A stretch of 64,000 nt of DNA from Thermoanaerobaculia bacterium (GTDB lineage Bacteria; Acidobacteriota; Thermoanaerobaculia; Multivoradales; UBA5704): assembly GCA_035556715.1 (NCBI GenBank), contig DATMER010000055.1, forward strand, positions 554 to 64,553, in the 5' to 3' direction. This document shows positions 36,096-51,332 of the stretch, in pieces. The notes beneath the pieces were generated by a model. It was not told the DNA's origin, searched no databases, and was given only the letters and a program-made list of their open reading frames with translations. The translations under genes and the position numbers were made by a program. The first letter of the stretch is position 1. Every line of letters begins with the position of its first letter.

Positions 36096-36225
36096 CGCTC
36101 ATACCCTTCCTCTCATCCGGGTACCGCCAGACGTGAGACCGAGGCCGGGAGGTGGGCAGAGTCCGCCACCCGTTGCACAAACGCGCGGAAGGCCTGTCGC
36201 GTAGCAGATGTGCTACACTCCCTTC

Positions 36226-37105: not shown

Positions 37106-37195
37106 CTCGCCCCCAACCTCCGTCCGCACCCTGTCTTTCAGAGATGTCCGAAGTCCGCTTCTCTGATACGAACTTTTCCGCGGTACGGAGGAATC

Positions 37196-39931
37196 ATGAA
37201 GACGAGAGTGCTGTGCGGGTGGAGCGTTGCCGTCCTGCTCCTGGGCTCGAGCCTGGTCCAGGCGCAGCCGAAAGCGGCGGATGAGTCGAGGCTGATCCTC
37301 CTCAACTCCCATATCATCGACACGAGCCGGCCCAGGCCAGCCACCCTGGCGATCCCGGAGGCCCTGCGGCTCCCCGGTGATGATCCCAAAGCCGACGAGA
37401 TCGTTCTCCTCAAGTTCCCGCGCCCGATCACCGCTCAACAAGAAAAGGCCCTGCGCGCGGCGAGCCTTCAGGTCTACGCCTACCTCCCGCACTACGCCTT
37501 CCTCGTGAAAATGGCCCCGGGAGGGCAGCAGAAGGCCAGGGCCCTCGGCGCGAGTTGGACCGGCCCCTATCACCCCTACTACAAGATGTCGCGGCCGGTC
37601 TCCGAGATCCCGGAGCTCGACTTCGCCCTCGATGCCTCGGGAGACGAAGAGCAGCCGCGGATCGTCATGCTTCAGGTCTTCCCGGATGCCGACGTGCGCG
37701 AGGTCGTCAGCCAGATCCGGGACGAGCTGGGCGTGCCCGGCGTGGTGGGCTGGGGCCGCGGCCAGCGATTCTCCCGCGTGCGGCTGCTGCTCACACCATC
37801 CGAAATTGCAAAGCACCGCGTGGCCCTCGCCCAGCTCGGCGAGGTGTTTTGGATCGACGTGGAGCCGCGGCGGGTCCTGCTCAACGACACCACGATCTGG
37901 GTTGGACAGTCGGGCCTGAGCGGCAGCCAGACCACCCCGATTTTCAGCCAGGGGATCTTCGGCGAGGGGCAGACGGTCGCCGTCCTCGACACGGGCATCG
38001 ATCCCGACATGTGCTTCTTCCGGGACACCGGACTGGGCCTGCCTCCCACCAACGCCTGCAACGGCGGCACGGTTGCCAATCAAAGCCAGCGCAAGGTGGT
38101 GGCGGTGAACTTCCTTGCGTCGGGCGAGTGCAGCGGCGGCATCGCCAACAACGAGTGGGACACGCACGACCACGGCTCGCACGTGGCCGGCACCGTGGCC
38201 GGCGACAACTTCACCAACCTGCTCCTCCATAACACCGCAGACGGCATGGCTCCCGGCGCCAAGCTGGTCATCCAGGACGGCGGCTTCCAGACGGACAACT
38301 GCGGCGACCTCCCCGGCATCGGTTGCCCGGTGGTGGACCTGAACCCGATCTTCCAGCAGGCCTACACCCAGGGCGCGCGCATCCACACGAACTCCTGGGG
38401 CGACAACGAGAACTCCGGGGTCCAGAACAACTACTCGTCAGGCAGCCAGGACGTGGACGAGTTCATGTGGAACCACAAGGATTTCCTGATCTTCTTCGCG
38501 GCGGGCAACTCGGGGCCGGGCACCAGCACGGTGGGCAGCCCATCGACCGCGAAGAGCGGCGTGTCCGTGGGCGCCACCCTGCGCGGCACGAGCGCCAACA
38601 GCATGGCCTCGTTCTCCAGCTGCGGCCCGACGCTTGACGGCCGCATCAAGCCGGACATCACGGTGCCGGGCTCGAGCATCGTCTCGGCCAACAACGACAT
38701 CAACGTCACCACGAACAACTGCGGCACGATCTCGATGAGCGGCACCAGCATGGCCACGCCGGGCGCCGCGGGCCTGACCGCCCTGATCCGCCAGTACTAC
38801 ACGGACGGGTGGTACCCCACGGGCAGCGAGAATTCGGCGAACGGCTTCACCCCGTCGGCAGCGCTGCTCAAGGCCACGCTGGTCAACTCGGCGGTGAGCA
38901 TGACCGGCACGACCGTGATCCCGGCCAACTGCCAGGGCTGGGGCCGGGTGCTGCTGGACAATGCCCTCTTCTTCACCGGCCAGGCGCGGGAGCTCTGGGT
39001 GCGGGACGACAATACCGGCTTCCCCACCGGCTCGACCAGTGCGCAGACCTTCACGTTCACGGTGGGCAGCGGCGAGCCGTTCAAGGCGACGCTCGCCTGG
39101 ACCGACTTCCCCTCGACCCCGGCCGCGAGCGTGAACCTGGTGAACGACCTGGACCTGACCGTCACCGGCCCGACCAGCACGATCTGGCGCGGCAATGTGT
39201 TTGCGAGCGGCCAGTCGGCCACCGGCGGCAGCTCGGACCGGCGCAACACCCTGGAGCAGGTGCTCCTGAACGTCCCGGCCGCGGGGACCTACACCGTCGA
39301 GGTCCGCGCCTTCAACGTGCCGAGCGGTCCGCAGCCCTTCGCTCTGGTGGTGACCGGCGATGTGGCCGCGGGCGGAGGCGGCAATCCCCCGGTGACAGTC
39401 TTCTCCGACACCTTCGAGACGAACCTGGGATGGACGGTGAACCCGCTCGGCACGGACACGGCCACGCTCGGCCTGTGGGAGCGGGGCGACCCGGCGGCCA
39501 CGAATTCGAGCGGCGCCAAGCAACTCGGCACGACTGTGAGCGGAGTCAACGACCTGGTGACCGGCCGTCTCGCCGGAGCCGCGGCGGGCGACCATGACGT
39601 GGACGGCGGCCTGACCACGATCCAGTCGCCGGCCATCGCGCTGCCTTCGACGGGCACTCTGACCCTGTCCTTCTCCTTCTACATGGCGCACGGCACCAAC
39701 TCCTCGACCGCGGACTCCTTCCGGGTGAGAGTGGTGGGCTCGACGACCTCGCTGGTCTTCGAGGAGCTGGGCGCGGCCAACGACGACGACGCGGTCTGGG
39801 AGTCCCGCTCGATCAACATCAGCTCGTTCGCGGGGCAGACGGTGCGCATCCGCATCGAGGCGGCGGACGCCAGCACCGCCAGTCTGGTGGAGGCGGCGGT
39901 GGATGATGTGAGGATCGTGCAACAGCCGTAG
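37196..39931 (+). CDS. Secreted S8 (subtilisin/kexin-like) peptidase with C-terminal jelly-roll-like domains
   Basis: GGAGGA RBS and signal peptide MKTRVLCGWSVAVLLLGSSLVQA, followed by an I9-like propeptide. Triad motifs are VAVLDTGID, HDHGSHVAGTVAG and SGTSMATPGAAG, plus AAGNSGPG. Confidence 0.93.
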   Translation: MKTRVLCGWSVAVLLLGSSLVQAQPKAADESRLILLNSHIIDTSRPRPATLAIPEALRLPGDDPKADEIVLLKFPRPITAQQEKALRAASLQVYAYLPHYAFLVKMAPGGQQKARALGASWTGPYHPYYKMSRPVSEIPELDFALDASGDEEQPRIVMLQVFPDADVREVVSQIRDELGVPGVVGWGRGQRFSRVRLLLTPSEIAKHRVALAQLGEVFWIDVEPRRVLLNDTTIWVGQSGLSGSQTTPIFSQGIFGEGQTVAVLDTGIDPDMCFFRDTGLGLPPTNACNGGTVANQSQRKVVAVNFLASGECSGGIANNEWDTHDHGSHVAGTVAGDNFTNLLLHNTADGMAPGAKLVIQDGGFQTDNCGDLPGIGCPVVDLNPIFQQAYTQGARIHTNSWGDNENSGVQNNYSSGSQDVDEFMWNHKDFLIFFAAGNSGPGTSTVGSPSTAKSGVSVGATLRGTSANSMASFSSCGPTLDGRIKPDITVPGSSIVSANNDINVTTNNCGTISMSGTSMATPGAAGLTALIRQYYTDGWYPTGSENSANGFTPSAALLKATLVNSAVSMTGTTVIPANCQGWGRVLLDNALFFTGQARELWVRDDNTGFPTGSTSAQTFTFTVGSGEPFKATLAWTDFPSTPAASVNLVNDLDLTVTGPTSTIWRGNVFASGQSATGGSSDRRNTLEQVLLNVPAAGTYTVEVRAFNVPSGPQPFALVVTGDVAAGGGGNPPVTVFSDTFETNLGWTVNPLGTDTATLGLWERGDPAATNSSGAKQLGTTVSGVNDLVTGRLAGAAAGDHDVDGGLTTIQSPAIALPSTGTLTLSFSFYMAHGTNSSTADSFRVRVVGSTTSLVFEELGAANDDDAVWESRSINISSFAGQTVRIRIEAADASTASLVEAAVDDVRIVQQP

Positions 39932-40007: not shown

Positions 40008-43000
40008 ATGACGATCGGCCCCGACCGGATCGATACCTCGAACCTCTTCCCCCTGGCCGAGTTCCTGACCTCGCTGTCGGATCTCGGCATCCGGGGCACG
40101 CTGGACGACTACCGGCGCATCGACCTGGCGTTGCGGGCGGGGGGGCCCTGGACGGTGTCCCAGTTCCGGGAGGTGCTGTCGTCCCTCCTGGTGCGGGACC
40201 GGGAGCAGGGGGTGGAGTTCCGGCGGCGGTTCAACGACTTCTTCTCGCTCCCTGGCCAGGATCAGGCCCGGTTCTCCGGCGTGGACCTGGAGCGGGCGCT
40301 GCCAGAGCTCCGGGGGCTGACCCCTGAGCCGAGGCTCCGGGCGATCCGGTTGCCGGACCTCTGGAAACCGCCTGAACGGAAGCGGGCCGCGCCCCGGAGG
40401 TGGCGGCGGTGGAGCTCCCTGGCGGCGCTCGTCCTCGCGGGCGCGCTCGGGTTGCAGGAGGGGCGCCCGCCGGTACCCGAGGACGCGCCGGTCGCGCAGC
40501 AGGCACGGGTCCAGGATGTCCCAAACCCGGCGACCCGGACCTATCCCCACGCACCCGTCCTGGTCCTGAAGGAAGTTCTTCCCACAGAAAGACCTCCCGC
40601 CTGGCCCGACCTCCGCCTGCTGGGCATCGCGGCCCTGGCCTATGGCTGGTGGCTCTGGAAGTGGCTCGCCGCGACGAGAGGGGGTCCGGACCCCGGAAAG
40701 ATCGACGACTCCCGGCCCCGGCTCTTCCGGCCGGAAAGCATCGGCGGGGCTCCGGCCCCACGGCTCGACCGGCAAACCCTGGACCGGCTGGCGGACTCGC
40801 TGGGATATTTCCGAAGCGAGGAGACCGGGCAGGACCTCGACGTTCCGGCTTCGGTCGAAATGACCGTCCGAAACGGCGGCATTCCGACTCCGGTCTTCGA
40901 GCTGCGGAAGCGGGTGCGGAGCCTCCTGGTTCTGGAGGACCTCCAGGCCGAGGCGCGGGCCTGGAATCCGATCGCCCGGGAGCTGGCGCTGGGGCTCGAC
41001 CGGAGAGGGATCTCCGTGGTGTACGGGACCTTCGCGGGGATACCGGACCGGTTCCGCACCGCGGACGGCCTGGACCGGCGCATCGAGGACCTGGAGGACG
41101 AGCGGCACGGCTACCTGGTGCTGATCTTCAGCGACGGCAAGGGCTTGCGTCCGGCGGAGGTCACCTTCGTCCTGGAGCGTCTTGCCCGCTGGCCGCAGGT
41201 GGCCTGGATGCAACTCCAGGAGCGGAGGGGCTGGGATTGGATCGCGGCGCGGCCAGCAGTCCACGGCCTGTCCGTGTTTCCGGCCGATCGGGAGGGCCTG
41301 CTGAGCGCCCTGGCTACTTTCACCACGGAACGGGCTCCTCTGAAGGCTCCCCGGGACCCGGAAAGCTGGCGAGGTCTCCCCCCTTTGCCCGTACAAGGGA
41401 GCCTGGAAGAGCACGTCAAGGGGATCCTGAGGGACAGCCTGCTTTGGGCCCAGGGCTGCGCCATGGCGCAGCCCCCCATCGGTCTGGGGTTGGCCGATCG
41501 CCTTCGCGAACGGTTCCATCCCTGGCTGCCGCCGGAGCGCGTCGAACGCCTTCTCGCGCTGCCGGGCAGCCGCCTGATCACGGGAGGGCTGAGGTTCGGG
41601 GACCCGGTGCTGGCCGTGCTCCGGGAGGGCTTCGTCACAGGGCGCGGCGAGGCCGAACAGGAGGCGGTCCTGGGCTTCCTCCTGGAGCAGACCCGCCTGG
41701 CGGAGCCCGACGATCCGGAGAGCCTGGCGCACCAGGCGTGGGAGTGGCGGCTGGAGCGGACGCGGTTGGAGCTCGAGCCGGAGCCGGCCGTGAAGCGCCT
41801 GGCGGTCCTTTCCCGGGGTCCGTTGGGCGAGTCCATCCGGGCCGACCTGGCCAGGGTGCAGGGTTCAGGTCCCGGGCCGAGGCGGCTCCCCCTGCGCGCT
41901 CAGCCCGGTCCGCAGGCCGCGGATCAGCTCGCCGCCATCGTGGAGGGCCGGGAGGTCTACCGGCCCGGTCTCTGGCCCGAGGCGGGGCTCGCCATCGCAG
42001 CCGTCGCGCTCCTGGCGCTCTCACTGTGGCGGATCGGCTCCTCCGATCCGGAGCAATTTGGGATGCAAGTCCAGTGGAGCGGACTGAAGGTCAACCAGAG
42101 CGCGGCCGTGAGGATCGAGCGTCGTGAGGGAGCGCGGTGGAGGCGCGTAATGGGCACGGAAAATGGGGGAGTGAGCTTAATCAGTGACAGCGAGTCCTCC
42201 GAGTATCGTGCCGTCGCCCTCATAGATGGGCTTACCGCTCCCCCCCTTCTCCTGGGAGGAACCTCCGGGACTTTCGAGATCGAGCTGAAGGTGGAGGCGC
42301 GAGAGATACCTTGCCGCGAGGAACACCCGGAGATCGGGTTGGTTGTGGATCGATGCGCGTCACCGCTGATCCATTCGGGCACACACTCTCCCCCTTCGGA
42401 AAGGAGATGGCCGGCAAGGATCGGCATCGAGATCGGAAACCGGATCACGGGCATCGGGACCGCAGACAGCCTTCTAGCTTTAAGTGAGGTCGACGTCGTT
42501 TATCGTCTGGATCCCGGACTTGGCCAATCTGACCGGACCATGAATTGGATCCGGGATGCATGGGGCTCTTGGGGCGATCGCGTCCATGTTCGATCCTGGA
42601 CGGTAAGTGAAGTCTCAACGGAAACCTTCTGGCTCGTGCATGCTTCCGACGAAGTTTCCCTTGACCGCTGGTCTCCCCCGACACGCTCGCAGCTTCAGTT
42701 TGCGTGGAGTCGCGGGATCGGGCCGACCCCGACGATACAGGAAAGCCCAGGTCGGGACGGAGCTGCCTCGATGGTCGCTTCGGAAGCGGATGGCCTGGCG
42801 AGGAACCCGGACACGTCCAGCCCGGTCCAGTCGACGGCCGAAAGCGTGAGGAGCCTGGAGGAAGAGGTCATCAGGGACCTGGAGTCAGCGCCGGCAGGCG
42901 ACCGGCGATCCGAGCTCAATCCCACGGTTCCCGGCCCGTCACCCTGTCCGGACCCGCAGCTCACCCTTTGCGGAAACGCCTGTGTGGACTTGAACACCCA

Positions 43001-43490
43001 TCCGTTTCACTCCGGGAGCTGCTTCCAGATCGCCCTAAGCCTGACCCGGACCGCCGCCGAGGGGGTGGACGAGCCGCCGGCGTGGACCGATGAAGGGATC
43101 CAGCCCCGGCGCTACTACCGTCTGTTCTATGCTTGGAACGAATCGAAGACCGCTGTCGTCGTCCGCAGCCTGCCCGCTCGGAGCCGGTGGGACCGGGGCG
43201 AGGCTCCCGGCTCGGTGGAGCTGACGCTGAGCGCGGAGGCGGTCGTCCGGCCGGGGTACACGCTGGCGGTCACCGACCTGGAGGTCCACTGCTCTGGTCC
43301 AGCACGGGTCGCGGGCTTCAACGGCACGTCGAGGAAGATGTACGAGAAGCTCAGCACTCAATCCACCTGGAGACCCTTCGGAGGGCAGCCCTGGCGCGGT
43401 CCGGCCGAGATGTCCATCCATAGCGGCCTGGCCCGGACCCTGGGCCCCGCCCTCACCCCTTGGGAGGAGCTGTGCGCCCGGCAACGTTGA
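40008..43490 (+). CDS. 3-TM membrane protein with CoxE-type vWA domain (MIDAS degenerate) and large C-terminal extracytoplasmic region
   Basis: 1160-aa ORF. The N-terminus (FLTSLSDLGIRGTLDDYRRIDLAL...LLVRDREQGVEFRRRFNDFF) parallels the CoxE-vWA paralogue at 27473. DLDVPASVEMTVRNGGIPTPVFELRKRVRSLLVLEDLQAE aligns by eye with ELDLDETIYQSARNGGEIDLVFRRGLLDRIEVVLLIDNGGSS. Hydrophobic helices lie at about aa 135-150, 203-222 and 658-676. Confidence 0.85.
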   Translation: MTIGPDRIDTSNLFPLAEFLTSLSDLGIRGTLDDYRRIDLALRAGGPWTVSQFREVLSSLLVRDREQGVEFRRRFNDFFSLPGQDQARFSGVDLERALPELRGLTPEPRLRAIRLPDLWKPPERKRAAPRRWRRWSSLAALVLAGALGLQEGRPPVPEDAPVAQQARVQDVPNPATRTYPHAPVLVLKEVLPTERPPAWPDLRLLGIAALAYGWWLWKWLAATRGGPDPGKIDDSRPRLFRPESIGGAPAPRLDRQTLDRLADSLGYFRSEETGQDLDVPASVEMTVRNGGIPTPVFELRKRVRSLLVLEDLQAEARAWNPIARELALGLDRRGISVVYGTFAGIPDRFRTADGLDRRIEDLEDERHGYLVLIFSDGKGLRPAEVTFVLERLARWPQVAWMQLQERRGWDWIAARPAVHGLSVFPADREGLLSALATFTTERAPLKAPRDPESWRGLPPLPVQGSLEEHVKGILRDSLLWAQGCAMAQPPIGLGLADRLRERFHPWLPPERVERLLALPGSRLITGGLRFGDPVLAVLREGFVTGRGEAEQEAVLGFLLEQTRLAEPDDPESLAHQAWEWRLERTRLELEPEPAVKRLAVLSRGPLGESIRADLARVQGSGPGPRRLPLRAQPGPQAADQLAAIVEGREVYRPGLWPEAGLAIAAVALLALSLWRIGSSDPEQFGMQVQWSGLKVNQSAAVRIERREGARWRRVMGTENGGVSLISDSESSEYRAVALIDGLTAPPLLLGGTSGTFEIELKVEAREIPCREEHPEIGLVVDRCASPLIHSGTHSPPSERRWPARIGIEIGNRITGIGTADSLLALSEVDVVYRLDPGLGQSDRTMNWIRDAWGSWGDRVHVRSWTVSEVSTETFWLVHASDEVSLDRWSPPTRSQLQFAWSRGIGPTPTIQESPGRDGAASMVASEADGLARNPDTSSPVQSTAESVRSLEEEVIRDLESAPAGDRRSELNPTVPGPSPCPDPQLTLCGNACVDLNTHPFHSGSCFQIALSLTRTAAEGVDEPPAWTDEGIQPRRYYRLFYAWNESKTAVVVRSLPARSRWDRGEAPGSVELTLSAEAVVRPGYTLAVTDLEVHCSGPARVAGFNGTSRKMYEKLSTQSTWRPFGGQPWRGPAEMSIHSGLARTLGPALTPWEELCARQR

Positions 43491-45916
43491 GAAAGATCCT
43501 GCTGCCCCTGACCCTCACCCTGGCCTCCCTCCCCGCGGCCGGGCAGGACGCCGAAATCGACCGCCGGATCGCCAGCGCTCAGGGGTGGGATGTGGTCGAA
43601 ATGGCGGCCTTCCCTGAGGTCCTGGTGGTGCGCCAGGGTGCCGCCGTCTACGGCCTGGACCCGTATAGCCTGCAGCAGCTCTGGGTTTTCCAGGGCACGG
43701 AGCTCGTGAACGGCCCGATCCTCCTCGGCGAACGGCTGTTCGTGATCGACAGGGAGATCAGGGAAAGCAGCTCCGGCTACGGGACCAGCCGGACCACGTA
43801 CCACAACGTCATCGAGCTCGACCCGGCCACAGGACGTCTCCGCTGGCAGAAGGAGTCCGCATCCTCGTCCGCCCGGGTGCTCTCCGCGTGCGAGAGGGTG
43901 GTCTTCCTCCTCGACAAGTTCATCCTATCCGTGTCCGGGGAGGCCCGGCCGGTCCGGGTCGCTCTGGTGAAACATCTCGGTCCCGACCTTGCGCGGGCCG
44001 TCTCTCCCGAGAGGATCTGGCTCGCCGGCGACCACTTGGTGGCGTGGGTGCCCGACCTTCGCCTCGCCGCCACCCTCCCGCTGGACGAGAGGGCCCGGCC
44101 ATGGCGGCGACCCTTCTCGGAGGGAGTCATGGATGTGGCGGGGTGCGGAGACGTGCAGGTCGTGACCACGGCCGGAGACACCCTCCTCGGCGTGGACGCA
44201 CGCACAGCGAAGACGATCTGGCAGCTCACCCGCCCCTGGGAAGACCGGCCCATCCTCCGGTTCCAACCCGGAGACTTCGTCCCCATGCCCGCAAAGCAGC
44301 GCCTGGAGGCCTACCGTTTCGTTCCGCTTGGCATTGGCAGCGATGCGCCCAAATGGCGGCTCGAGCTGGTTGAAGCTGAAGACGTTCCGGCGCACAGGCT
44401 GACCTGGATCGATCCGAAAGACGGGTCGATTCTTCCCTTTCCCCTGGAAGACGCTCTGACCGACGCCCGCGGGTTCCTCCAGGACGGGCATGAGCGTGCC
44501 GTGCTCTTTATGGGCAGCCGGCTGACCGTCCACAGCTTCGCGTCGGGAGCCAGGGAGTGGACCTACGACGCTGGAGAGCCGATCCGGCTCACGGCTCCGG
44601 CCGAAAGCTACGTGGCCCTTGTTACCGAGAGCGGGAGGCTCGACGTCCTGGGCCAGTCCCGGCCGCGGTCCCCCGAAGAGCAACCCCTCCCCGATGCGGG
44701 CGGGATCGACCTCTCCACGGATCCGGAGGACGCTGCCGTCTGGCTGGATGCCTCCTTCCTCGGCCGCGGCGGCCGGCGGATAGGGGACCTGAGCCCGGGG
44801 ACGCACCGGCTGCGGCTGGTCCATCCCGACCGCAAGAGGCTCGAAACGGTGGCGGAGGTGGCTCCCGGCCGGATCACGCCGCTCGTCCTCACCATGGAGA
44901 GCGGCGATCAGGGCACGGTCCTGATCGACTCCGACCCGGCCGGGGCGATCGTCTCTATCGACGGGGAAAAGGCCGGCAAGACCCCTTTCACTGACTACAA
45001 GTACCCGGCGGGCCAGAGCCTTCAGGTGACCGTGGAGAGAATGGGTTACTGGGATGTCCGGCAGATCCTGTCCGTCGGAGAGGAGGGTGCTACGCTCTCC
45101 GCCTCTCTCGAGCTGGCTCCTCCGCTCCTGAGTGTGTTCGGCATCGTGGGGAGGGCCGGAACAGGCCCGATCCGGGGGTGGAGGGAGACCGATATCCGGG
45201 AAGGGCAGGTAGCAGGAAGGCCCTATCGTCCGGCGGACGGCGATACATTCCTGAAGGGCACCTACTCTCTGGAGATCGGACCCCCTCGCTGGCGCTTCTT
45301 CGGCCGGGGCAACTTCTCCAGCCATGAGGACATTTTCTCCGAGTTCCAGGGCGGTGTCTGGCTCTCACTGAAGAAAGGGCTTCGAGTCGAAGCCGGAATC
45401 TCCTACCTCGCCATGGAAGGGGGCCTGGAGAGCTCGCCGCCCTCGCGCCGAGGGGAGGGCTTCGAGGGCACTCCGGACCGGGATGCTCCCCTTGAGGAAT
45501 GGGAGCATCCGGTCCCCGGCGTCTTCGTCAGGAACGACGCGCCCCGCTACTGGCTGGGACAGATCCGGCTCCGGCCGCGGGCGGGCCTCCTCGTGGAGCT
45601 TGGCGCCGGGCGCCCGCAGAATGCGAGGCTGAATGGCACCGCTCTCGTAGAGGATGCCTCCGGCCACCTCGTTCGGGACCCGGCCCGGTTCTACGACTTC
45701 CGCGCTCGTGGCGGCGAGATCCTGGACGCGCGGCTCCATCTGGCGTTGGGCACCTTCCGGATCTGGAAGCTCGCCCCCAGCACGGCGGTCGAGATCCACT
45801 ACCGGTTCCGCCGGACGGACTTCGGCGCCGTCGAAGAGAAGACCAGCGAGCTCACACTCGGGTTCGGGGTCCTCTTGTTTCGCAGCCAACCGTTGGATGT
45901 GTGGGGTCTGCGGTGA
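43460..45916 (+). CDS. Secreted PQQ-like beta-propeller + tandem PEGA domain protein with beta-rich C-terminus
   Basis: Signal-like LRKILLPLTLTLASLPAAGQD. BamB/PQQ-type blades include VYGLDPYSLQQLW, ELDPATGRLRWQ and GVDARTAKTIWQ. PEGA motifs are DAAVWLDASFLGRGG...GTHRLRL and GAIVSIDGEKAGKTPF. The start is TTG 43460 or GTG 43472, and the gene overlaps the upstream gene by about 20-30 nt. Confidence 0.85.
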   Translation: MGGAVRPATLRKILLPLTLTLASLPAAGQDAEIDRRIASAQGWDVVEMAAFPEVLVVRQGAAVYGLDPYSLQQLWVFQGTELVNGPILLGERLFVIDREIRESSSGYGTSRTTYHNVIELDPATGRLRWQKESASSSARVLSACERVVFLLDKFILSVSGEARPVRVALVKHLGPDLARAVSPERIWLAGDHLVAWVPDLRLAATLPLDERARPWRRPFSEGVMDVAGCGDVQVVTTAGDTLLGVDARTAKTIWQLTRPWEDRPILRFQPGDFVPMPAKQRLEAYRFVPLGIGSDAPKWRLELVEAEDVPAHRLTWIDPKDGSILPFPLEDALTDARGFLQDGHERAVLFMGSRLTVHSFASGAREWTYDAGEPIRLTAPAESYVALVTESGRLDVLGQSRPRSPEEQPLPDAGGIDLSTDPEDAAVWLDASFLGRGGRRIGDLSPGTHRLRLVHPDRKRLETVAEVAPGRITPLVLTMESGDQGTVLIDSDPAGAIVSIDGEKAGKTPFTDYKYPAGQSLQVTVERMGYWDVRQILSVGEEGATLSASLELAPPLLSVFGIVGRAGTGPIRGWRETDIREGQVAGRPYRPADGDTFLKGTYSLEIGPPRWRFFGRGNFSSHEDIFSEFQGGVWLSLKKGLRVEAGISYLAMEGGLESSPPSRRGEGFEGTPDRDAPLEEWEHPVPGVFVRNDAPRYWLGQIRLRPRAGLLVELGAGRPQNARLNGTALVEDASGHLVRDPARFYDFRARGGEILDARLHLALGTFRIWKLAPSTAVEIHYRFRRTDFGAVEEKTSELTLGFGVLLFRSQPLDVWGLR

Positions 45917-47838
45917 CCGAGGCAATGACCGAGCCGGAGCGCTGGTTCGTCGAGCTCTGGATGGAAGGGGGTTCCCATCAGGGCCGCATCCACCGCGGCA
46001 GCTCCGACCGTGGTTTTTCCTTCGAGGCACCGGCCCTTGGCCCCGATGCCACGATCCCCGGATGGCCCGAGACCCTGGGCACTCTTCTGGAGCGCCTGCT
46101 GAAGCTGGACGTGAGCTTCGAGCGGATCTTCGACGAGCGGCTCCAGGTCGAGCTCGGCAAACACCTCTGGACTCAGACCTTCGGCCGGATCGACAACCTG
46201 GACTTCCCCGAGGAAGGGGATGTCGAGGTACAGATCGTCACCGAGGACGAGCATCTCGCCCGTCTCCCCTGGGTGCTCCTGAACCGGCGCGGACCGTTCC
46301 TCTGCGCGTGTGGCTGGTCTGTGGCCCTCACCCGCTCGGCCGCCGGCCAGGAGGACTACATCCTCTCCCCTTCCCCCAAGATGCTGATCGTCGCGCCGGA
46401 GCCTGTGGGCCCGGGCCTGCCGCCCACCCATGCGGCCTCCCACGTGGAAGATCTGGAACGGATGCTCTGCGAGGCAGACCACCGCCTTCAGAGAGGCAAG
46501 AACCTGCAGGTCGTCTCCGGATGGGACGAGGTCGGACCGGCCCTGCAGCAGCTCCAGCCCCATCTCCTCTACTACTACGGCCACGGCAGGGGGAGCGCGG
46601 CCCGGTCGCGGCTCGTCTTCACCCGGAGCTCCGACCCGAAGCCGCTGGAGGTCCCGGTGGCCGACTTCGCTCACGAGCTCCGGCGCTTCGCTGGGCCGCA
46701 GCTCCTCTTCGCCTATATCAACTGCTGCCAGGGCGATGCCGGCGGCCTCCTGGGCGCGGGCTGGCAGTTGGGCGAGGTCGTGCCCGCAGTCGTGACCAAC
46801 CGCACCCTGGCTTACGTGCCGGCCGCCCGCGCCCAGGGCCTGGAGCTCTGGCGGGCGCTTCTGATCGAGGGCGATCCGCCGCACAGCGCCGTGGCGAACC
46901 TCCACGCGCGCCTGGAGATCCCGGAGCAGAGCTTCGGGAACACCCGCTGGATGAACCCGGTCCTCCACCGCCGGTATGCGCGCTGGATCTCCACTCCGCC
47001 GCGGCGTCGCTCCCGCCTGGACCGCGATCCGCACTGGAACGTGAAGCTGGACCGGTCCAATCAGTTCGGCCGGGTCTTCAACGACACGGACCTGATGCTG
47101 TATGAGAAAAGGCCTCGGGTCCTCGCCTACATCTGGTACGGCGAGGAGGGCCAGGGGGTCGATCTCTTTCATCAGCGCTTCCAGGTGGAGCTGCAGGAAC
47201 GACTGAAAAAGGCCCTCCTCCTGGAGGTCAAGCCTGAGTGGCCCCAAGAGCTGCGCAATCCCTACCGGTCGTTCGCGGACATGATTGCCCACGCCTGCGA
47301 CATTCAGGATCTCTCCGACTTCACCGCCTGGGTCCGCTCCGAAGGGCAGATCGACCGGCGGCGCACTCCCCTCGTCCACGTTCGCCATGAGCCCCTGAAC
47401 CAGGGGGAGGCCGTGAAGCCCTCCACCCTGAAGACTTACCTGGAGTGGTGGAACAAGCAGCTCGTCCCGTGCCTGGAGGAAGCCAAAGCCTTCGGCCTGC
47501 TGGGCATCTCCTTCCTGGCGCAGAAGAACCCCGCCCGCCTCCGGGATCGGCTGAACCAGGAGCTTGGAGGGCTGGACCTCGACGACGTCACATTTACGGT
47601 GCTCGATGAGCTCGAGGAGCTCGTCCTCCAGGACCTCAGGACCTTCCTTAAGGGTCACCACGTCGCACTGCCCCCCTCCCTGAGGGACAACGTCCTGGCC
47701 CGTATCCTGGAAAAGACCGGCGGGCGCTACGAGATGACCCTGGAGGAGCTCAAGAGAGTCGTGGATAAGGCCTGGGACGACGAGGACCAGGCGGAGGAGC
47801 CGGTCGCACAGCCCGGCGACAACGAAGACGACTGGTAG
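45913..47838 (+). CDS. Caspase-like (CHAT-type His/Cys) protease domain fused to a degenerate P-loop NTPase-like module
   Basis: The GTG at 45913 forms a GTGA overlap with the upstream stop, with an alternative ATG at 45925. A His motif LLYYYGHG (His codon 46582-46584) is followed about 47 aa later by LLFAYINCCQG (Cys codons 46723-46728). This mirrors VHFATHG...VVLSGCETALG of the CHAT protein at 56513. A later segment, VLAYIWYGEEGQGVDLF, looks like a decayed Walker A. Confidence 0.8.
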   Translation: MTEAMTEPERWFVELWMEGGSHQGRIHRGSSDRGFSFEAPALGPDATIPGWPETLGTLLERLLKLDVSFERIFDERLQVELGKHLWTQTFGRIDNLDFPEEGDVEVQIVTEDEHLARLPWVLLNRRGPFLCACGWSVALTRSAAGQEDYILSPSPKMLIVAPEPVGPGLPPTHAASHVEDLERMLCEADHRLQRGKNLQVVSGWDEVGPALQQLQPHLLYYYGHGRGSAARSRLVFTRSSDPKPLEVPVADFAHELRRFAGPQLLFAYINCCQGDAGGLLGAGWQLGEVVPAVVTNRTLAYVPAARAQGLELWRALLIEGDPPHSAVANLHARLEIPEQSFGNTRWMNPVLHRRYARWISTPPRRRSRLDRDPHWNVKLDRSNQFGRVFNDTDLMLYEKRPRVLAYIWYGEEGQGVDLFHQRFQVELQERLKKALLLEVKPEWPQELRNPYRSFADMIAHACDIQDLSDFTAWVRSEGQIDRRRTPLVHVRHEPLNQGEAVKPSTLKTYLEWWNKQLVPCLEEAKAFGLLGISFLAQKNPARLRDRLNQELGGLDLDDVTFTVLDELEELVLQDLRTFLKGHHVALPPSLRDNVLARILEKTGGRYEMTLEELKRVVDKAWDDEDQAEEPVAQPGDNEDDW

Positions 47839-47858
47839 AACCGCGAGGAGGAGCCCTG

Positions 47859-48809
47859 ATGACCGCTGCCTATCCCTTCCGGCTGATCGACCGCCGCCGA
47901 GAGGGTCCCATGGAAGACCCGGGGCTCCTGCGCCAGCGCCCCTTCATCCAGCTCCGGCGGACCTTCGAGGACGACGCCAGGCTGTTCGACTCGGGCGACG
48001 AGTTGGAGACGGCCATGAACACGGCTCTCGCCGTGGGACTCCCTCTTCTGATCACCGGCGAGCCCGGCACGGGCAAGACCCAGGCCGCGTACTACGCAGC
48101 GTGGAAGCTGAGAGCCGAGCCCGTGATCCACTTCCAGGTCAAGTCCGACAGCACGGCCCGCGACCTCCTCTACTCCTTCGACACCGTGCAGTACTTCCAC
48201 GACGCCCATCTCGCCGGGTCCGGGGAGCTCCCGGACAAGATCAAGTACCGGACGCCGCGGGAGCTCTGGGACGCCCTGAAGTCGCCCAACCCCCGCGTGC
48301 TCCTGATCGACGAGATCGACAAGGCCCCCCGCGACTTCCCCAACGACCTGCTCCATGAGCTGGACAAAATGGAGTTCACCGTCCGGGAGACCCGGGAGAA
48401 GATCGACGCCGAGCCGGAGATGCGGCCGGTGGTCTTCATCACCTCCAACAGCGAGAGACGCCTCCCCGAGCCCTTCCTGCGGCGCTGTGTCTACCACAAC
48501 ATCCGGTTCGATGAGGAGCTGGTCCGGCGGGCGGTGAGGGTCCGGCGCGAGCGCGGAGAGTACGGCAACCTGAGCGACGGGTTCCTGGAGATGGCTCTCC
48601 AGCGCTTCCTGGCCCTGCGGGAGCGGAGCCTGCGCAAACCGCCAGCCACCGGCGAGCTTCTGGTCTGGCTGCGGGTGCTCGCCCTGGCCGCCGGAACCTA
48701 CCCGGAGAGGCTGGAGGAGAGGGACCTCTCCAAGCTGCCTTACTTGGGGACCCTCCTCAAGGACCACGATGACATTGAGAGCCTTCCGCGCGAGAAGGGC
48801 CGGCCATAG
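47859..48809 (+). CDS. MoxR-like AAA+ ATPase
   Basis: GAGGAGGAG RBS, Walker A LLITGEPGTGKTQ, Walker B VLLIDEIDKAPRD and VVFITSNSERRLPEPFLRRC. It is a paralogue of 26639..27463. Confidence 0.92.
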   Translation: MTAAYPFRLIDRRREGPMEDPGLLRQRPFIQLRRTFEDDARLFDSGDELETAMNTALAVGLPLLITGEPGTGKTQAAYYAAWKLRAEPVIHFQVKSDSTARDLLYSFDTVQYFHDAHLAGSGELPDKIKYRTPRELWDALKSPNPRVLLIDEIDKAPRDFPNDLLHELDKMEFTVRETREKIDAEPEMRPVVFITSNSERRLPEPFLRRCVYHNIRFDEELVRRAVRVRRERGEYGNLSDGFLEMALQRFLALRERSLRKPPATGELLVWLRVLALAAGTYPERLEERDLSKLPYLGTLLKDHDDIESLPREKGRP

Positions 48810-48830: not shown

Positions 48831-51332
48831 TCACCTCCCGATCTGGCTCAGGATCTGGGGGTCGGTGATTTTGGTGTCCTCAGCCAGGAGGAACGCCTTG
48901 CTGAGGATGACTGCCAGGGTGCCGTCCCCCTCGAAGGGGAGGACCGGCTGGGCTCCGCGCGGAGACCGGTCCGCAACGATACAGAGATATTGGTCGTTCG
49001 GCTCCAGCAGAATGTTGCCGCTGCCCAGGTGGATCTTGTAGGTCTTCCGTTCTCCCCGGACCACGAGGAAGCGCTCGGTCAGGGTGCAGCGGTCCGCGAT
49101 CTTCAGTCGAGGGACCAGCCTCCCGAGCAGCTCCCGGCGGGTGCGGGCGCTCTCGCCCAACTCGCCGAAGGAGTACTCGCGCCAGTAGCCCGTCCCCGGA
49201 CGATCCCCTCCGGCAGTCCAGTTGGGGTCGTTGCCCACGCTGCAGACCCCCACGAAGAGGTCCACGTCGCGCATCAGCTCGGAGAACAGGAGGGGCGGCA
49301 CCTGCTCCAGGGGTTGCGGCACGCCTGCCAGGTCGCAGAACCGCACCTGGTCGGTGGCAACGTAGAGGTAGATGGCCATCTCCGAGGCGTCTTCCCCGGC
49401 GGCGTCGACCCAGAATTCGACCCGGAGGCCGTGCTCCGGGATCATCAGGAACGGGGTGTTGTGGGAGTCGAACTGTCCCTGAAGCCCGTAGGTCCAGCCT
49501 CGCTGCCTGCAGAGTGCCGCGAACTGGTGCTGCTTGAGGATGTGGGCGGCGAACCGGTTCGAGTAGATGGCCGTCTGCCGCTCGGCGTCGGTGAGCAGGT
49601 AGATCTCGCGGTGGGCCTGCTTGAAGGGCTGAACCACCTCCCAGGCTTCGAGGCGGGTGCGCCAGGCCAGCACCTCGTCCGCCTGGGAGTCGAGAGGGTG
49701 CCATAAGGAAACCCGGGTGTCTTCCGGAAGATCGAGCGGCTGCTCCTCGGCATCCACGATCCGGTCCTCGCGCCAGAAGCCAGTCTGTGTCCCAAAGCAC
49801 CAGATCAGGCGGCGCGCCAGGGTTCCGACGAGAGGATGATCCAGGTAGCGCTCGCGCCAGGTGGCGAGGTCCCAGTCGCGAGGAAACAGGTAGAGCCGCT
49901 CCAGGCGGTCGCGCTGGCCCGGGAGGAGCTTCTGGATCTCCCTGGCCGCGGCGGTCAGGGCTTTCAGCTCGTCCGCGTGGCCCTCCTTGACCGCCTTGGG
50001 TACGGACTTCTGCGGCTTGCCCTGCTGCAACCAGGTCAGCTCGGTGGAGGCCGTGCCGGTGACCCGCAGCTCGGCGGTGAAGCCGCCCAGGGTCTCCCGG
50101 CGCAGCCCGGGCTCCGTAAGGCCCAGAGTGGGGACCGCCATCTCCTCCAGCTCGGCCTTGGTGAGACCTTGCCGCTCGGCCGCCTTGCCCAGGAGGGTTT
50201 CGAGCTGCTTGCGCGAGGAGGGGTGCTGGACCCGGGTACGCAGACGGCTGAGCTGGGCCACGGCCTCCGGGGTGCCCAGGCGGCTCAGGGTGTCCAGGCA
50301 GGCGTTGCCCACCTTGGCATTGCGTGGGCCGTGGCCGTCGACTTTCCGGAAGCAGGCCTCCGCGGCCCTGCCGACGGCGGCCGTGAGCGCGGGATCGTCC
50401 ACCAGGTTGGCGCACCAGGCCAACCCCCGCAGGAGGTCGGTCTGCTCGTCGTCCAGGAGGGTAGGTTCGATCTCGTACTGGTGACTCATGAATGTCTGCA
50501 CCTTCCTCATCCCCGGCTCGCCGACCCGGCCCAGGCAGAGGGTCAAGACCCGGGAGACTCCCTCCGGGGCCAGCACGCCCGACAACTCCTTCGCCCGGGA
50601 GAGCCATTTCGACGACGGCCTGGCCGAGGTCGCGGTCGCGCAATGCGCGAGGAGGTCCAGCCAGGCCGCGGCGTCTCCGGGCAGCATGGCATCGAGCGCG
50701 TCCAGGAGTGTGTTGGCCCAGGCGTCTCCGCGGCGCAGGTCCAGGCCCGGCTCCTTGGGGCTGCCGTGCCGGAGGAGGTGGCGGAGCCTTTCCAGAACCT
50801 TCCTCTGCTCCAGGTTGGGATGACGGGCGAGCCGGTCCGGCAGCGTGCCCAGGGTAGCGCGCAGGTGCACGCCGAGCCCGTGCTCCCGGACGTGGTCCTC
50901 CAAGGTGCGCAGGAAGACCGGGACCGGCATCATACAGGCGCTCTCTCCGAGGTCGCGGACGGCCTCCGCGAGCCGGACGAGTTGCTCCTCCTGGAAAACG
51001 GGCTTCCGGCGCAACAGAGGCCCGGCCAGACTCGTAGCCATCATCATGGCGTTGTGGTTGTGGCTCCGGGCCGCGTGCAGGTATCGCAGGAACACCTCGA
51101 CTGCCAGCTCCGCCTGGGCACGGGGATCAAGGCCGAAGATCGTGCGCCCGGCAGCATGCTCGCCGGGATCGAACCGGATGTTGAGCTGGCGCCACGGCCC
51201 GCCATGTCTTGTGAGCGCCTGCGCCAGGAGATCATCGAGGAGAGACGGGCCCGCAGTGGGATGGGGGCCGGGCGTCTTCTCCTCCGTCCGGGCACGGCCT
51301 TTCCCCGTGAGGCCCTCGAGCCACTTCCACAT
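48831..51332 (-). CDS. DUF4132 domain protein (helical-repeat N-terminus)
   Basis: 833-aa ORF with GGAGGG upstream. The C-terminal half (WRERYLDHPLVGTLARRLIW...PFKQAHREIY...FAAHILKQHQFAALCRQRGW...YKIHLGSGNIL) matches my memory of the DUF4132/MolR-like family. Confidence 0.8.
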   Translation of the reverse strand: MWKWLEGLTGKGRARTEEKTPGPHPTAGPSLLDDLLAQALTRHGGPWRQLNIRFDPGEHAAGRTIFGLDPRAQAELAVEVFLRYLHAARSHNHNAMMMATSLAGPLLRRKPVFQEEQLVRLAEAVRDLGESACMMPVPVFLRTLEDHVREHGLGVHLRATLGTLPDRLARHPNLEQRKVLERLRHLLRHGSPKEPGLDLRRGDAWANTLLDALDAMLPGDAAAWLDLLAHCATATSARPSSKWLSRAKELSGVLAPEGVSRVLTLCLGRVGEPGMRKVQTFMSHQYEIEPTLLDDEQTDLLRGLAWCANLVDDPALTAAVGRAAEACFRKVDGHGPRNAKVGNACLDTLSRLGTPEAVAQLSRLRTRVQHPSSRKQLETLLGKAAERQGLTKAELEEMAVPTLGLTEPGLRRETLGGFTAELRVTGTASTELTWLQQGKPQKSVPKAVKEGHADELKALTAAAREIQKLLPGQRDRLERLYLFPRDWDLATWRERYLDHPLVGTLARRLIWCFGTQTGFWREDRIVDAEEQPLDLPEDTRVSLWHPLDSQADEVLAWRTRLEAWEVVQPFKQAHREIYLLTDAERQTAIYSNRFAAHILKQHQFAALCRQRGWTYGLQGQFDSHNTPFLMIPEHGLRVEFWVDAAGEDASEMAIYLYVATDQVRFCDLAGVPQPLEQVPPLLFSELMRDVDLFVGVCSVGNDPNWTAGGDRPGTGYWREYSFGELGESARTRRELLGRLVPRLKIADRCTLTERFLVVRGERKTYKIHLGSGNILLEPNDQYLCIVADRSPRGAQPVLPFEGDGTLAVILSKAFLLAEDTKITDPQILSQIGR

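Follow-up and report, generated by a model that had tools for sequence, protein, structure and literature searches.

A divergent iSTAND protein with a predicted CHAT protease domain in a MoxR-vWA ternary locus of a Thermoanaerobaculia bacterium

Ternary systems with an inactive STAND component

The iSTAND ternary systems, which combine a MoxR ATPase, a vWA-effector protein and an inactive-STAND protein, were described by Kaur, Burroughs, Iyer & Aravind (eLife 2020, PMC7159879). The published N-terminal repertoire of the iSTAND proteins comprises TIR, caspase-like peptidase, EAD, bDLD1, trypsin-like and DRHyd modules (PMC7159879, section 20), and the N-terminal peptidase is a signal-processing module in the published model (PMC7159879). 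These systems resemble animal apoptosis in their logic and their domains and are known by computational prediction only. We analyzed a stretch of 64,000 nucleotides from a Thermoanaerobaculia bacterium (the window) and found that one of its proteins, here called CHAT-iSTAND, is the iSTAND third component (Pfam PF19995) of a predicted MoxR-vWA ternary conflict system in the sense of Kaur et al. (2020). Its architecture is not new, having already been described in that work (PMC7159879, section 20).

As in the published iSTAND systems, the third component joins a caspase-like peptidase, at its N-terminus, to a dead STAND module, the MoxR ATPase is a dedicated one, and the partner has a CoxE-like N-terminal helical domain, transmembrane (TM) segments and a hypervariable C-terminus, in which FGS is the commonest domain and PEGA occurs after the TM segment. 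Both sets also share alternative N-terminal modules among relatives (TIR, EADs, bDLD1) and, apparently, a spread over taxa in which filamentous or multicellular forms are frequent; here the taxa include cable bacteria, Beggiatoa/Thiosymbion, Chloroflexaceae and Caldilineaceae, but also Acidobacteriota, Planctomycetota and Verrucomicrobia. The locus differs in that the window protein scores below the Pfam thresholds for iSTAND and CHAT, the partner is missed by the Pfam vWA models and carries Glu-Asp at the MIDAS, and the genes follow the order vWA-like, accessory gene, iSTAND, MoxR. The CHAT-iSTAND clade is strongly conserved, whereas iSTAND has been published as a ‘rapidly evolving sensor’ (PMC12839542).

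Other described systems resemble single parts of the locus. SAVED-CHAT (8tl0; type III CRISPR/CBASS-like cascades) is what the protease half resembles most closely in structure and in sequence, at an identity of only ~16%. Its CHAT protease is turned on when the attached sensor module assembles, which we count as a likeness, but that sensor is a filament-forming SAVED binding cyclic oligoadenylate, whereas the module here is a dead AAA+ domain accompanied by MoxR and vWA proteins. Apoptosome-type platforms (CED-4/CED-3, Apaf-1/caspase-9, and the bacterial Avs and AP-ATPase-caspase) likewise combine a STAND fold with a caspase-fold protease, and induced-proximity activation is the likely common logic. 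Their STANDs bind and exchange ATP/dATP via an intact Walker A GK[ST], a capacity abolished in CHAT-iSTAND; the NTP-dependent step lies in their own STAND, while in the window system it is predicted to lie in the separate MoxR ATPase. MoxR-vWA pairs, NorQD, CoxDE and RavA-ViaA among them, work on cofactors and protein complexes, which they mature or insert. The pairing of a MoxR AAA+ ATPase with a vWA protein is the same in NorQ-NorD, CoxD-CoxE and RavA-ViaA as in the window, but these pairs serve metallo-enzyme maturation and have a metal-binding MIDAS, whereas the window partner has its MIDAS replaced and spans the membrane, and a protease-iSTAND protein is an obligatory third component of the window-type system.

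The operon at 40008-48809 consists of four co-directional genes that overlap or are tightly spaced (Table 1). Stop and start codons overlap at 43460-43490 and 45913-45916, and a gap of 20 nt lies ahead of the MoxR gene, which has a ribosome-binding site (GAGGAGG) 7 nt upstream.

Table 1. Features of the locus and of other genes of the window discussed in the text, with their positions in the window.
Feature	Position	Strand	Size or residues	Basis or remark
Secreted S8 peptidase	37097-39931			Upstream of the operon
vWA-like membrane-spanning partner	40008-43490	+	1160 aa	Foldseek, hhalign, synteny
Glu-Asp pair of vWA-like partner	40935-40940		E310-D311	Invariant
Strong TM segment of vWA-like partner	41970-42038		aa 655-677
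C-terminal domain of vWA-like partner	42045-43487			Cys-rich, lineage-variable
Accessory secreted protein	43460-45916	+	818 aa	Pfam PEGA E 1.9e-16, PQQ_2 E 6.2e-8
CHAT-iSTAND protein	45913-47838	+	641 aa from GTG 45913 or 637 aa from ATG 45925	ORF and translation
Caspase/CHAT-fold protease domain	46222-46992	+	~aa 104-360	Foldseek, profile, hhalign, conservation
YYYGHG motif	46570-46587		aa 220-225
His224 codon	46582-46584
NCCQGD motif	46720-46737		aa 270-275	Caspase-like
Cys271 and Cys272 codons	46723-46728
Cys272 codon	46726-46728			Predicted catalytic
iSTAND AAA+-like domain	47035-47793	+	~aa 375-627	Foldseek, PF19995 in family, motif statistics
Walker-A-like turn WYGEEGQGVDLFHQR	47134-47178		aa 408-422
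Walker-B-like strand LVHVRHEP	47371-47394		aa 487-494
MoxR-type AAA+ ATPase	47859-48809	+	316 aa	Pfam AAA_5 E 7.5e-14
MoxR Walker A GEPGTGKT	48057-48080			Intact
MoxR Walker B LLIDEID	48300-48320			Intact
DUF4132/DUF7737 gene	48831-51332			Convergent
Bona fide TPR-CHAT protein	56513-59812	-		Pfam CHAT E 4.6e-66

The CHAT-iSTAND protein

The start of CHAT-iSTAND may be ATG 45925 rather than GTG 45913, because the 637-aa database protein P0001 and the N-termini of the homologues agree with the former. More than 146 homologues, each of ~630 aa, were found (accessions of the family include AUB82755, WP_157817779, OQY51225 and RKZ46122), and every database match of CHAT-iSTAND, as of the vWA-like partner, is labelled ‘hypothetical’. 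With the single CHAT-iSTAND sequence, searches gave zero matches in Pfam, NCBIfam and PADLOC and chance matches only (E ≥ 0.38) in the PDB; because they were uninformative, family-level profiles and structure prediction were required. The AlphaFold2 (AF2) model has a pLDDT of 92 and a pTM of 0.79. The sequence contains no hydrophobic or TM segment and is predicted to encode a cytosolic two-module protein. It is well conserved across phyla, and all residue statistics below refer to 109 aligned homologues with 37-78% identity.

A first-pass annotation, made from the letters of the window, had proposed a caspase/CHAT-like His-Cys dyad fused to an apparently inactivated P-loop module, and the motifs that it quoted proved to be correctly placed when the translation was checked. 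It had also likened the spacing of the dyad to that in the bona fide CHAT domain of the window, and the two are indeed close (47-48 residues from His to Cys in CHAT-iSTAND versus 49 in the TPR-CHAT protein, H959 and C1008). In the AF2 model, H224 comes after strand 218-222 and C272 after strand 266-270. The pair is kept throughout the family (H224 in 109/109 homologues, C272 in 108/109), together with N270 (109/109) and C271 (107/109). Foldseek matched the N-terminal half to SAVED-CHAT 8tl0 (E 1.7e-9) and to separases (E 1e-7 to 1e-6). The family sequence profile found the CHAT domain of 8tl0 in the PDB (E 2.1e-5), where His and Cys lined up with those of the family, and hhalign aligned both residues with those of the window's TPR-CHAT domain (E 0.0033). 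The Pfam CHAT model (PF12770) gave no match to the window protein at E ≤ 0.1, while matching 11 of 57 homologues at E ≤ 1 (best 1.3e-8). The protease half is a divergent CHAT branch, recognizable only by profile or structure. As modelled, it has a caspase-hemoglobinase fold, and with its His224/Cys272 dyad intact it is a predicted protease. The fold and the dyad of what had been called a ‘protease effector’ are hence borne out; the effector status is not established, and the published model places the peptidase in signal processing.

The C-terminal half was matched by Foldseek to ORC/Cdc6 proteins (8s0e, 1w5s, 2qby) and to CED-4 (2a5y, 4m9s, 8jns), with E values from 2e-5 to 5e-4 over both sets, and the model indicates a STAND/ORC-type AAA+ fold, in agreement with the STAND-like P-loop fold suggested at first pass. 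The glycines of the P-loop-like turn, G410 and G415, are kept in 109/109 homologues. The degeneration of the Walker motifs, proposed from the single window sequence, holds for the entire alignment. At the Walker A Lys position stand V (56), I (23), L (19) or M (11) and never K or R, the Ser/Thr position is E (55) or D (46) in 101 of the 109 and never S or T, and the acidic positions of Walker B are taken by R (83) or C (22), followed by H (108), and never by D or E. The replacement residues are themselves conserved (F419 109/109, R422 109/109, H492 108/109), and the protein has no intact Walker A elsewhere. The conservation pattern of the dyad and of the degenerate Walker motifs is far beyond chance. 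The alignment suggests a permanently inactivated STAND module, whose nucleotide-binding residues were swapped long ago for other, strongly conserved ones. We should note that CHAT-iSTAND shares the STAND fold but is not to be classed as an active STAND NTPase (NACHT/NB-ARC/AP-ATPase/Avs), because Walker A GxxxxGK[ST] and Walker B hhhhD[DE] are both missing. The reading of the raw sequence had thus recovered a subtle, real architecture, with a caspase-like protease on a dead STAND and a separate ATPase.

PF19995 scores the window protein at 13.3 bits (E 0.11; cut-off 24). Within the family it matches 37 of 57 proteins at E ≤ 1, the best at 4.1e-5, and one of them (P0052) reaches 24.8 bits. A profile of the iSTAND module retrieved 304 cluster representatives. 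Relatives of non-standard length carry TIR (12/40) and also EAD2, EAD7, EAD8, EAD11, bDLD1 or an alpha/beta-hydrolase; trypsin-like and DRHyd fusions were absent among the relatives found. There is thus an annotation gap, since CHAT-iSTAND and, above all, its vWA-like partner escape current Pfam thresholds.

The MoxR ATPase and the vWA-like membrane partner

The MoxR protein has intact Walker A and Walker B motifs and is predicted to be an active ATPase. Its gene lies downstream of the CHAT-iSTAND gene in 38 of the 39 related loci with enough flank and adjoins the CHAT-iSTAND gene on the same strand in 33, so that the link between the two, pointed out earlier from their adjacency in the window, recurs across the family. 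The NTP-dependent reliance of CHAT-iSTAND on MoxR, which had been proposed along with it, is what we infer from this arrangement. The accessory protein encoded between the vWA-like and CHAT-iSTAND genes has a signal-peptide-like N-terminal stretch, a PQQ-like beta-propeller and a PEGA domain, and homologues were found only in the closest relatives (loci L003, L004 and L009).

A third partner, the membrane-spanning vWA-like protein, is likewise conserved; it was missing from the first-pass annotation. Its gene occurs in 23 of the 24 related loci with enough flank. The protein begins with a helical domain, of four helices in the AF2 model (~aa 17-79), which is followed by two weak TM helices (~aa 134-149 and 202-224), a CoxE/NorD-like core (~aa 270-440) that is predicted to be cytosolic, a helical linker and a strong TM segment. 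The invariant E310-D311 stands where the MIDAS DxSxS would be. The model of the core has a pLDDT mostly >80 with many blocks >90. Its best Foldseek match is NorD of the NorQD complex, at a weak E of 3.6e-3, and TFIIH p44 and the integrin I-domain are weaker still. An alignment by hhalign with VWA_CoxE is in register over 117 columns, again at a weak E of 0.0074. The profile of the core had no match in the PDB up to E ≤ 10, and a Pfam scan of 27 homologues at E ≤ 10 returned zero vWA families. The vWA assignment therefore comes only from Foldseek and hhalign, as the Pfam and PDB sequence searches gave nothing. The homologues have the N-terminal ~640 aa in common, and BLASTP query coverage is 33-73% in the divergent ones.

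Predicted function and alternative readings

We consider it probable (roughly 60%) that the operon at 40008-48809 encodes a single MoxR-vWA-iSTAND ternary conflict system, a predicted defence against phage or other invaders. It is read as a conflict system because TIR, EAD and Death-like fusions and Pepco adjacency are hallmarks of such systems. The defence role is a prediction from comparative genomics; a literature search for experimental reports of an anti-invader function of the ternary systems found none, and the absence of a match between the PADLOC models and CHAT-iSTAND counts against defence. Further points against this reading are the missing toxic effector, the weak vWA scores, the strong conservation of CHAT-iSTAND and the ordinary GC content of the locus. 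In the mechanism that we propose, the dead STAND, without ATP switching of its own, would be an oligomerisation and recognition scaffold, and a MoxR hexamer acting via the vWA-like co-chaperone would supply an ATP-dependent, threshold-setting conformational step. Licensed iSTAND modules would then assemble and gather the CHAT domains, which would be activated by induced proximity as in the apoptosome with caspase-9, and the active protease would cleave a latent substrate, so that the infected cell would stop growing or die. Specificity at the cell envelope would most likely come from the variable C-terminal domain of the vWA-like protein.

A candidate substrate in about half of the related loci (11/24) is the product of an adjoining Pepco gene (PF24393), a putative pore-forming pro-toxin here. 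Evans et al. (bioRxiv 10.1101/2025.11.14.688446) report that Pepco is a protease-activated pore-forming toxin, a pre-assembled beta-barrel that is set loose by the protease linked to it. The Pepco proteins of the related loci differ from the characterised SsPepco in having no C-terminal tail, the removal of which activates the latter. The window differs from Pepco-protease modules in that it has no Pepco: an HMM of 15 locus copies found none among all window ORFs of at least 40 aa at E ≤ 10. The window locus has no recognizable toxic effector either, the C-terminal domain of the vWA-like protein giving no Pfam match. In the window, the protease might instead cut host proteins or the vWA-like protein itself, in its linker.

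The signal could also flow in reverse. The extracytoplasmic C-terminus of the vWA-like protein would then sense phage adsorption, foreign surfaces or cell-wall damage, and the signal would pass through its cytosolic core and MoxR remodelling to CHAT-iSTAND as the terminal executioner. We regard this as unlikely. The published model has iSTAND as the sensor and the vWA C-terminus as the effector (PMC7159879, PMC8195603). What speaks for an envelope receptor is that variability lies in the vWA-like C-terminus and not in CHAT-iSTAND. Among the homologues, this C-terminus is swapped between FGE-sulfatase (9/27), PEGA, WD40, TPR, SBP and Ig-like domains, and the FGE-sulfatase/FGS lectin fold, PEGA, SBP, WD40 and Ig-like modules are typical of periplasm or surface. 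The C-terminal domain in the window is probably extracytoplasmic as judged from its sequence, with one Cys before and eight after the strong TM segment. The operon also holds the accessory secreted beta-propeller-PEGA protein, and a separate effector gene is missing from the window. However, the topology of the vWA-like protein is predicted, two of its three TM helices are weak, and the caspase domain at the C-terminus of the homologue in locus L007 suits an effector better than a sensor. One could go further and see in this clade a bacterial ‘death-receptor’ pathway, leading from a pseudo-vWA protein with a swappable surface sensor through MoxR and an apoptosome-like dead-STAND ring to a caspase-like protease; the residues that replace the Walker motifs would be where MoxR or the vWA-like protein docks, and not a nucleotide pocket. 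This conjecture is quite unlikely; if true, bacteria would have outside-in caspase signalling in which the STAND scaffold and the NTPase step are physically distinct.

A role in envelope biogenesis or quality control, in which MoxR and the vWA-like protein would remodel an envelope protein and CHAT would be a maturation or turnover protease, seems very unlikely to us. It would fit the resemblance of the vWA-like core to its nearest match in structure, NorD from the NorQD maturation complex, the housekeeping genes that flank several related loci, the highly conserved CHAT-iSTAND sequence, the lack of a PADLOC match and the unremarkable composition of the locus (GC 0.678 versus 0.673 for the window). 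The system is, however, patchily distributed over unrelated phyla, its C-terminal domains are shuffled among lineages, and no client gene is conserved; the TIR, EAD and bacterial Death-like fusions and the Pepco adjacency are marks of conflict rather than of a dedicated maturation pathway. It is highly improbable that the C-terminal module is alive, binding a nucleotide or nucleotide-derived signal in a non-canonical way via F419, H420, R422, R491 and H492 and acting as a ligand-gated switch that MoxR only resets: the replacement residues are conserved like catalytic ones, the GxxGxG turn is kept and the N-terminal TIR domains of relatives could produce such signals, but phosphate binding is made less likely by the hydrophobic residue in place of Lys and the acidic one in place of Ser/Thr, and a protein-protein interface would explain the conservation equally well.

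The clade is a good entry to experiments on the predicted conflict system, with a model of very high confidence, three tightly syntenic partners, clearly defined catalytic and pseudo-catalytic residues and Pepco as a candidate substrate. A check of the locus for signatures of horizontal transfer showed no GC deviation. The convergent DUF4132/DUF7737 gene was rejected as a member of the system, as it is missing from the neighbourhoods of the homologues. The secreted S8 peptidase gene upstream, also considered as a possible member, recurs only in a closely related locus (L001), which probably reflects shared ancestry.

The CHAT-iSTAND protein: motifs, conservation and fold

In the CHAT-iSTAND gene, the GTG start and the stop codon of the preceding gene share the sequence GTGA. 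The alternative ATG agrees with the 637-aa database homologue P0001 and with the N-termini of other homologues, leaving the start uncertain by four codons. The first-pass annotation had described a caspase/CHAT-like His-Cys dyad fused to an apparently inactivated P-loop NTPase, and all motifs that it quoted were recovered at the same coordinates. YYYGHG spans aa 220-225 (His224 codon at 46582), NCCQGD aa 270-275 (Cys271/272 codons at 46723-46728), the Walker-A-like stretch WYGEEGQGVDLFHQR aa 408-422 and LVHVRHEP aa 487-494. The spacing between His and Cys is indeed like that of a bona fide CHAT domain (47-48 residues versus 49 in the TPR-CHAT protein of the window).

Coordinates of the features in the window
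Feature	Position	Strand	Characteristics
AAA_5 MoxR-like ATPase	26600-27463	+	Second MoxR-vWA pair
Canonical VWA_CoxE protein	27473-28660	+	PF05762, E 3.3e-6; second MoxR-vWA pair
Calcineurin-like metallophosphoesterase	29140-30432	+	Beside second MoxR-vWA pair
Probable type II toxin-antitoxin pair	36208-36872	+	Phd/YefM-like antitoxin, then overlapping PIN-domain protein
Subtilase, 944 aa	37097-39931	+	Peptidase_S8, E 1.6e-46; PPC domain
vWA-like protein, 1160 aa	40008-43490	+	Two gene positions upstream of CHAT-iSTAND
Accessory protein, 818 aa	43460-45916	+	PQQ-like beta-propeller and PEGA domain
CHAT-iSTAND protein	45913-47838	+	641 aa from GTG; 637 aa from alternative ATG at 45925
MoxR-type ATPase	47859-48809	+	AAA_5, E 7.5e-14; 20 nt downstream of CHAT-iSTAND
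DUF4132 and DUF7737 protein, 833 aa	48831-51332	-	Convergent to MoxR gene
TPR-CHAT protein, 1099 aa	56513-59812	-	Pfam CHAT, E 4.6e-66; multiple TPR families

Among 5.8 billion proteins searched, more than 146 proved homologous, nearly all of about 630 aa and every one labelled ‘hypothetical’. Conservation was counted in an alignment of 109 homologues with 37-78% identity to the window protein. The dyad is conserved (His224 in 109/109, Cys272 in 108/109), as are Asn270 (109/109) and Cys271, Gly274 and Asp275 (107/109 each). The caspase pentapeptide is QAC(R/Q)G, which the N-C-C-Q-G-D motif presumably resembles. Given this likeness and the NGCRGD found in one homologue, Cys272 is taken to be the predicted nucleophile.

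The C-terminal half retains a GxxGxG turn with invariant Gly410 and Gly415, and the proposed loss of the Walker motifs holds throughout the alignment. The Lys position of Walker A holds V (56), I (23), L (19) or M (11), with no case of K or R; likewise, S and T are absent from the Ser/Thr position, where E (55) and D (46) predominate. Following the hydrophobic strand 487-490, R (83) or C (22) and then H (108) take the place of the Walker B acidic pair. Because these positions are uniformly replaced, the degeneracy is, judging from the alignment, ancient and fixed. The same counts indicate that the replacement residues F419 (109/109), R422 (109/109) and H492 (108/109) are themselves strongly constrained. 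The CHAT-iSTAND clade is conserved rather than fast-evolving.

An AlphaFold2 model built on the 109-sequence alignment (mean pLDDT 92.0, pTM 0.79) was compared with the PDB using Foldseek, and both anticipated folds were found. The N-terminal half resembles the SAVED-CHAT filament 8tl0 in its activated form (E 1.7e-9) as well as the separases 7nj1, 5fby and 9hn4 (E 1e-7 to 1e-6), while the C-terminal half matches ORC/Cdc6 (8s0e, 1w5s, 2qby; E 2e-5 to 1e-4) and CED-4 (2a5y, 4m9s, 8jns; E 1.5e-4 to 5e-4). The family profile also matches the CHAT chain of 8tl0 (E 2.1e-5) with GHG and N-CC aligned, and hhalign against the TPR-CHAT protein (E 0.0033) places the His, the Cys and the C-terminal CHAT signature in register. 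A live-looking caspase-fold protease sits on a dead STAND scaffold.

A Pfam scan of the window protein gave no match at E <= 0.1. Over 57 homologues, PF19995 (iSTAND) was found in 37 (best E 4.1e-5) and PF12770 (CHAT) in 11 (best E 1.3e-8). A profile of the C-terminal module (aa 372-628), searched against 1.84 billion cluster representatives, finds 304 proteins at E <= 1e-3, of which 145 reach E <= 1e-30; most of the matches are CHAT-iSTAND proteins of about 630 aa. Forty matches of other lengths were scanned for domains: 12 carry TIR, and EAD2, EAD8, EAD11, bDLD1 or alpha/beta-hydrolase domains occur in others. N-terminal to CHAT, some full-length relatives have an extra TIR, EAD2, EAD7, EAD8 or TPR-LRR region. 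We file the module as iSTAND, though the window protein scores below the Pfam threshold (13.3 bits versus a cut-off of 24), because the domains of its relatives overlap the published iSTAND repertoire (TIR, caspase-like peptidase, EADs, bDLD1).

Partner genes and synteny

The MoxR gene is preceded by a GAGGAGG ribosome-binding site. Its product has an intact Walker A (GEPGTGKT) and the Walker B LLIDEID; FITSN and PFLRR read by eye like sensor-1 and arginine-finger elements. The ATPase is apparently active.

The vWA-like protein has no Pfam, NCBIfam or significant PADLOC match. The N-terminal ~640 aa are common to it and its 26 homologues (BLASTP covers 33-73% of the query in the divergent ones). 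Past this stretch the sequences have nothing in common: FGE-sulfatase occurs in 9/27 C-termini, and PEGA, WD40, TPR, solute-binding or Ig-like domains in others. A constant core thus carries swappable ends. The core, LDVxASxxATxRxGGIP...RSVLxLEDxxAEA...YLVLIFSDGKG, was read by eye as a CoxE-type vWA pattern with an invariant E310-D311 at the MIDAS DxSxS position. The AF2 model of aa 1-640 has a pLDDT of 77 overall (aa 240-620 mostly >80, many blocks >90). Among PDB structures it is closest to NorD of the NorQD (MoxR-vWA) complex (9qhe_G, E 3.6e-3), with weaker matches to the TFIIH p44 vWA domain and an integrin I-domain. Aligned by hhalign with the VWA_CoxE family of the window (E 0.0074, 117 columns), the core profile pairs ‘LxLEDxxAE’ with ‘LLIDNGGSS’ and ‘LIFSDGK’ with ‘LILGDAS’. 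The product is a probable, though not proven, vWA protein. It has a strong TM segment (aa 655-677) and two weaker helices (~aa 134-149 and 202-224), and contains one Cys in aa 1-640 versus eight in aa 680-1160. This layout, the Cys distribution and the kinds of C-terminal domain in relatives suggest that the variable C-terminus is extracytoplasmic.

We collected 51 related loci. Their ORFs were searched with two HMMs, one for the vWA-like core and one for the CHAT-iSTAND protein, and with phmmer using the window MoxR, the 818-aa protein and one Pepco ORF; duplicate loci were removed for the counts. The link to MoxR, noted earlier from adjacency in the window, extends to 38 of the 39 loci whose downstream sequence is 1.2 kb or longer (adjacent and on the same strand in 33). 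Where both flanks reach 6 kb or more (24 loci), a vWA-like gene is present in 23; the sole exception, locus L046, has a truncated CHAT-iSTAND copy. The three-way synteny is tight. A small Pepco gene (PF24393) is present in 11 of these 24 loci, usually just upstream of the vWA-like gene. The 818-aa protein, whose N-terminal stretch reads like a signal peptide, is encoded between the vWA-like and CHAT-iSTAND genes of the window and recurs in the closest relatives only. Hosts include Acidobacteriota, Desulfobacterales (with cable bacteria), Beggiatoa, Thiosymbion, Chloroflexaceae, Caldilineaceae, Planctomycetota and Verrucomicrobia.

Several loci deviate in detail. The copy at L046:10001-11350 (Desulfobacterales) covers only aa 10-455 and lacks MoxR and vWA-like neighbours; the same genome holds a complete system (L022), and this copy is probably a decayed paralogue. 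In Thiodictyon (L005/L006:9212-9934), a short ORF (called gene 134 aa) between an FGE-sulfatase-bearing vWA-like gene and the CHAT-iSTAND gene matches the family profile (E 5e-17) and may be a split or duplicated fragment. At L007:13373-16927 (Candidatus Electrothrix), the genes run in the order CHAT-iSTAND, MoxR, Pepco, vWA-like. This system has two caspase-fold proteases, since its vWA-like protein bears a C-terminal Peptidase_C14 caspase domain (E 2.9e-13). Two MoxR homologues (L015:1636-2787 and 12719-13678, Desulfococcaceae) flank the vWA-like and CHAT-iSTAND genes.

Published iSTAND systems and proposed mechanism

PF19995 derives from Kaur, Burroughs, Iyer and Aravind (eLife 2020, PMC7159879), whose section 20 describes ‘iSTAND ternary systems’. 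Each combines three proteins: a MoxR AAA+ ATPase, a vWA protein and a protein with a catalytically inactive STAND core. The vWA protein opens with a CoxE-like four-helix domain, often has TM segments and varies greatly towards its C-terminus (most often FGS; PEGA, OmpA, PASTA or Sel1 following the TM segment). The STAND-based protein bears at its N-terminus TIR, DRHyd, a caspase-like or trypsin-like peptidase, or effector-associated domains, among them a bacterial Death-like domain (PMC7159879). In the model that later papers keep, iSTAND is the proposed sensor, MoxR and vWA would act as a chaperone pair that sets the threshold, and the peptidases would carry out processing (PMC8195603; PMC12839542). 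A nucleic-acid-sensor role is likewise a published idea. Our literature search found no experimental study of an iSTAND ternary system. The first-pass reading of a protease, a putative effector, on a degenerate STAND-like switch that would rely on the neighboring MoxR is supported, but the locus has the same architecture as these systems, already published as a computational prediction (PMC7159879). Added here are the identification of the unannotated vWA-like partner with its replaced MIDAS motif and likely membrane topology, the quantified synteny, the Pepco link in about half of the related loci and the conservation of the CHAT-iSTAND clade.

In the reading that we favor (probability about 0.6), MoxR and the vWA-like protein would supply the ATP-dependent licensing step lost from the STAND module. 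The iSTAND modules would then assemble and activate CHAT by proximity, and CHAT would cleave a latent substrate (Pepco where the locus has it, or else host proteins or the vWA-like linker at about aa 600-655), resulting in abortive infection. The same parts could work in reverse, with the variable extracytoplasmic domain as sensor and CHAT-iSTAND as executioner; the variability of the vWA-like C-terminus speaks for this order, but some relatives bear a caspase at that very end, and we consider it unlikely. A housekeeping chaperone-protease role seems more doubtful still, and non-canonical ligand binding by the ‘dead’ pocket is the least probable explanation.

According to a 2025 preprint (10.1101/2025.11.14.688446), Pepco is a pore-forming toxin whose beta-barrel is pre-assembled and which a linked protease switches on. 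None was found in the window. The proteins at L003:3350-3649, L007:13016-13321 and 12 further loci end right after a conserved ‘...ITLTFS/A’ strand and thus lack a C-terminal tail, whereas the characterised SsPepco is activated by tail removal. Instead, they share a conserved N-terminal ‘...TLG’ motif. The missing tail and this motif hint that the cleavage site of caspase-linked Pepco differs from that of SsPepco.

Other genes in the window

The TPR-CHAT protein represents an independent sensor-protease of the defence-context kind, 7.7 kb from the CHAT-iSTAND system. The second MoxR-vWA pair, whose VWA_CoxE protein shares 93% identity with proteins of Thermoanaerobaculia MAGs, may with the adjacent phosphoesterase form another small conflict or chaperone module (26600-30432, forward strand). 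This identity points to Thermoanaerobaculia (Acidobacteriota) as the probable source of the window. Conserved adjacency of the DUF4132/DUF7737 gene to the system was not seen in the loci of other genomes. In the probable toxin-antitoxin pair, the antitoxin (90 aa, E 7.9e-6) is below the Pfam cut-off and the PIN-domain protein matches at E 3e-9. The subtilase begins with what reads like a signal peptide, and its gene stops 76 nt short of the vWA-like gene. Since an S8 fragment likewise lies upstream in the closely related locus L001, a linkage of the subtilase to the system is possible.
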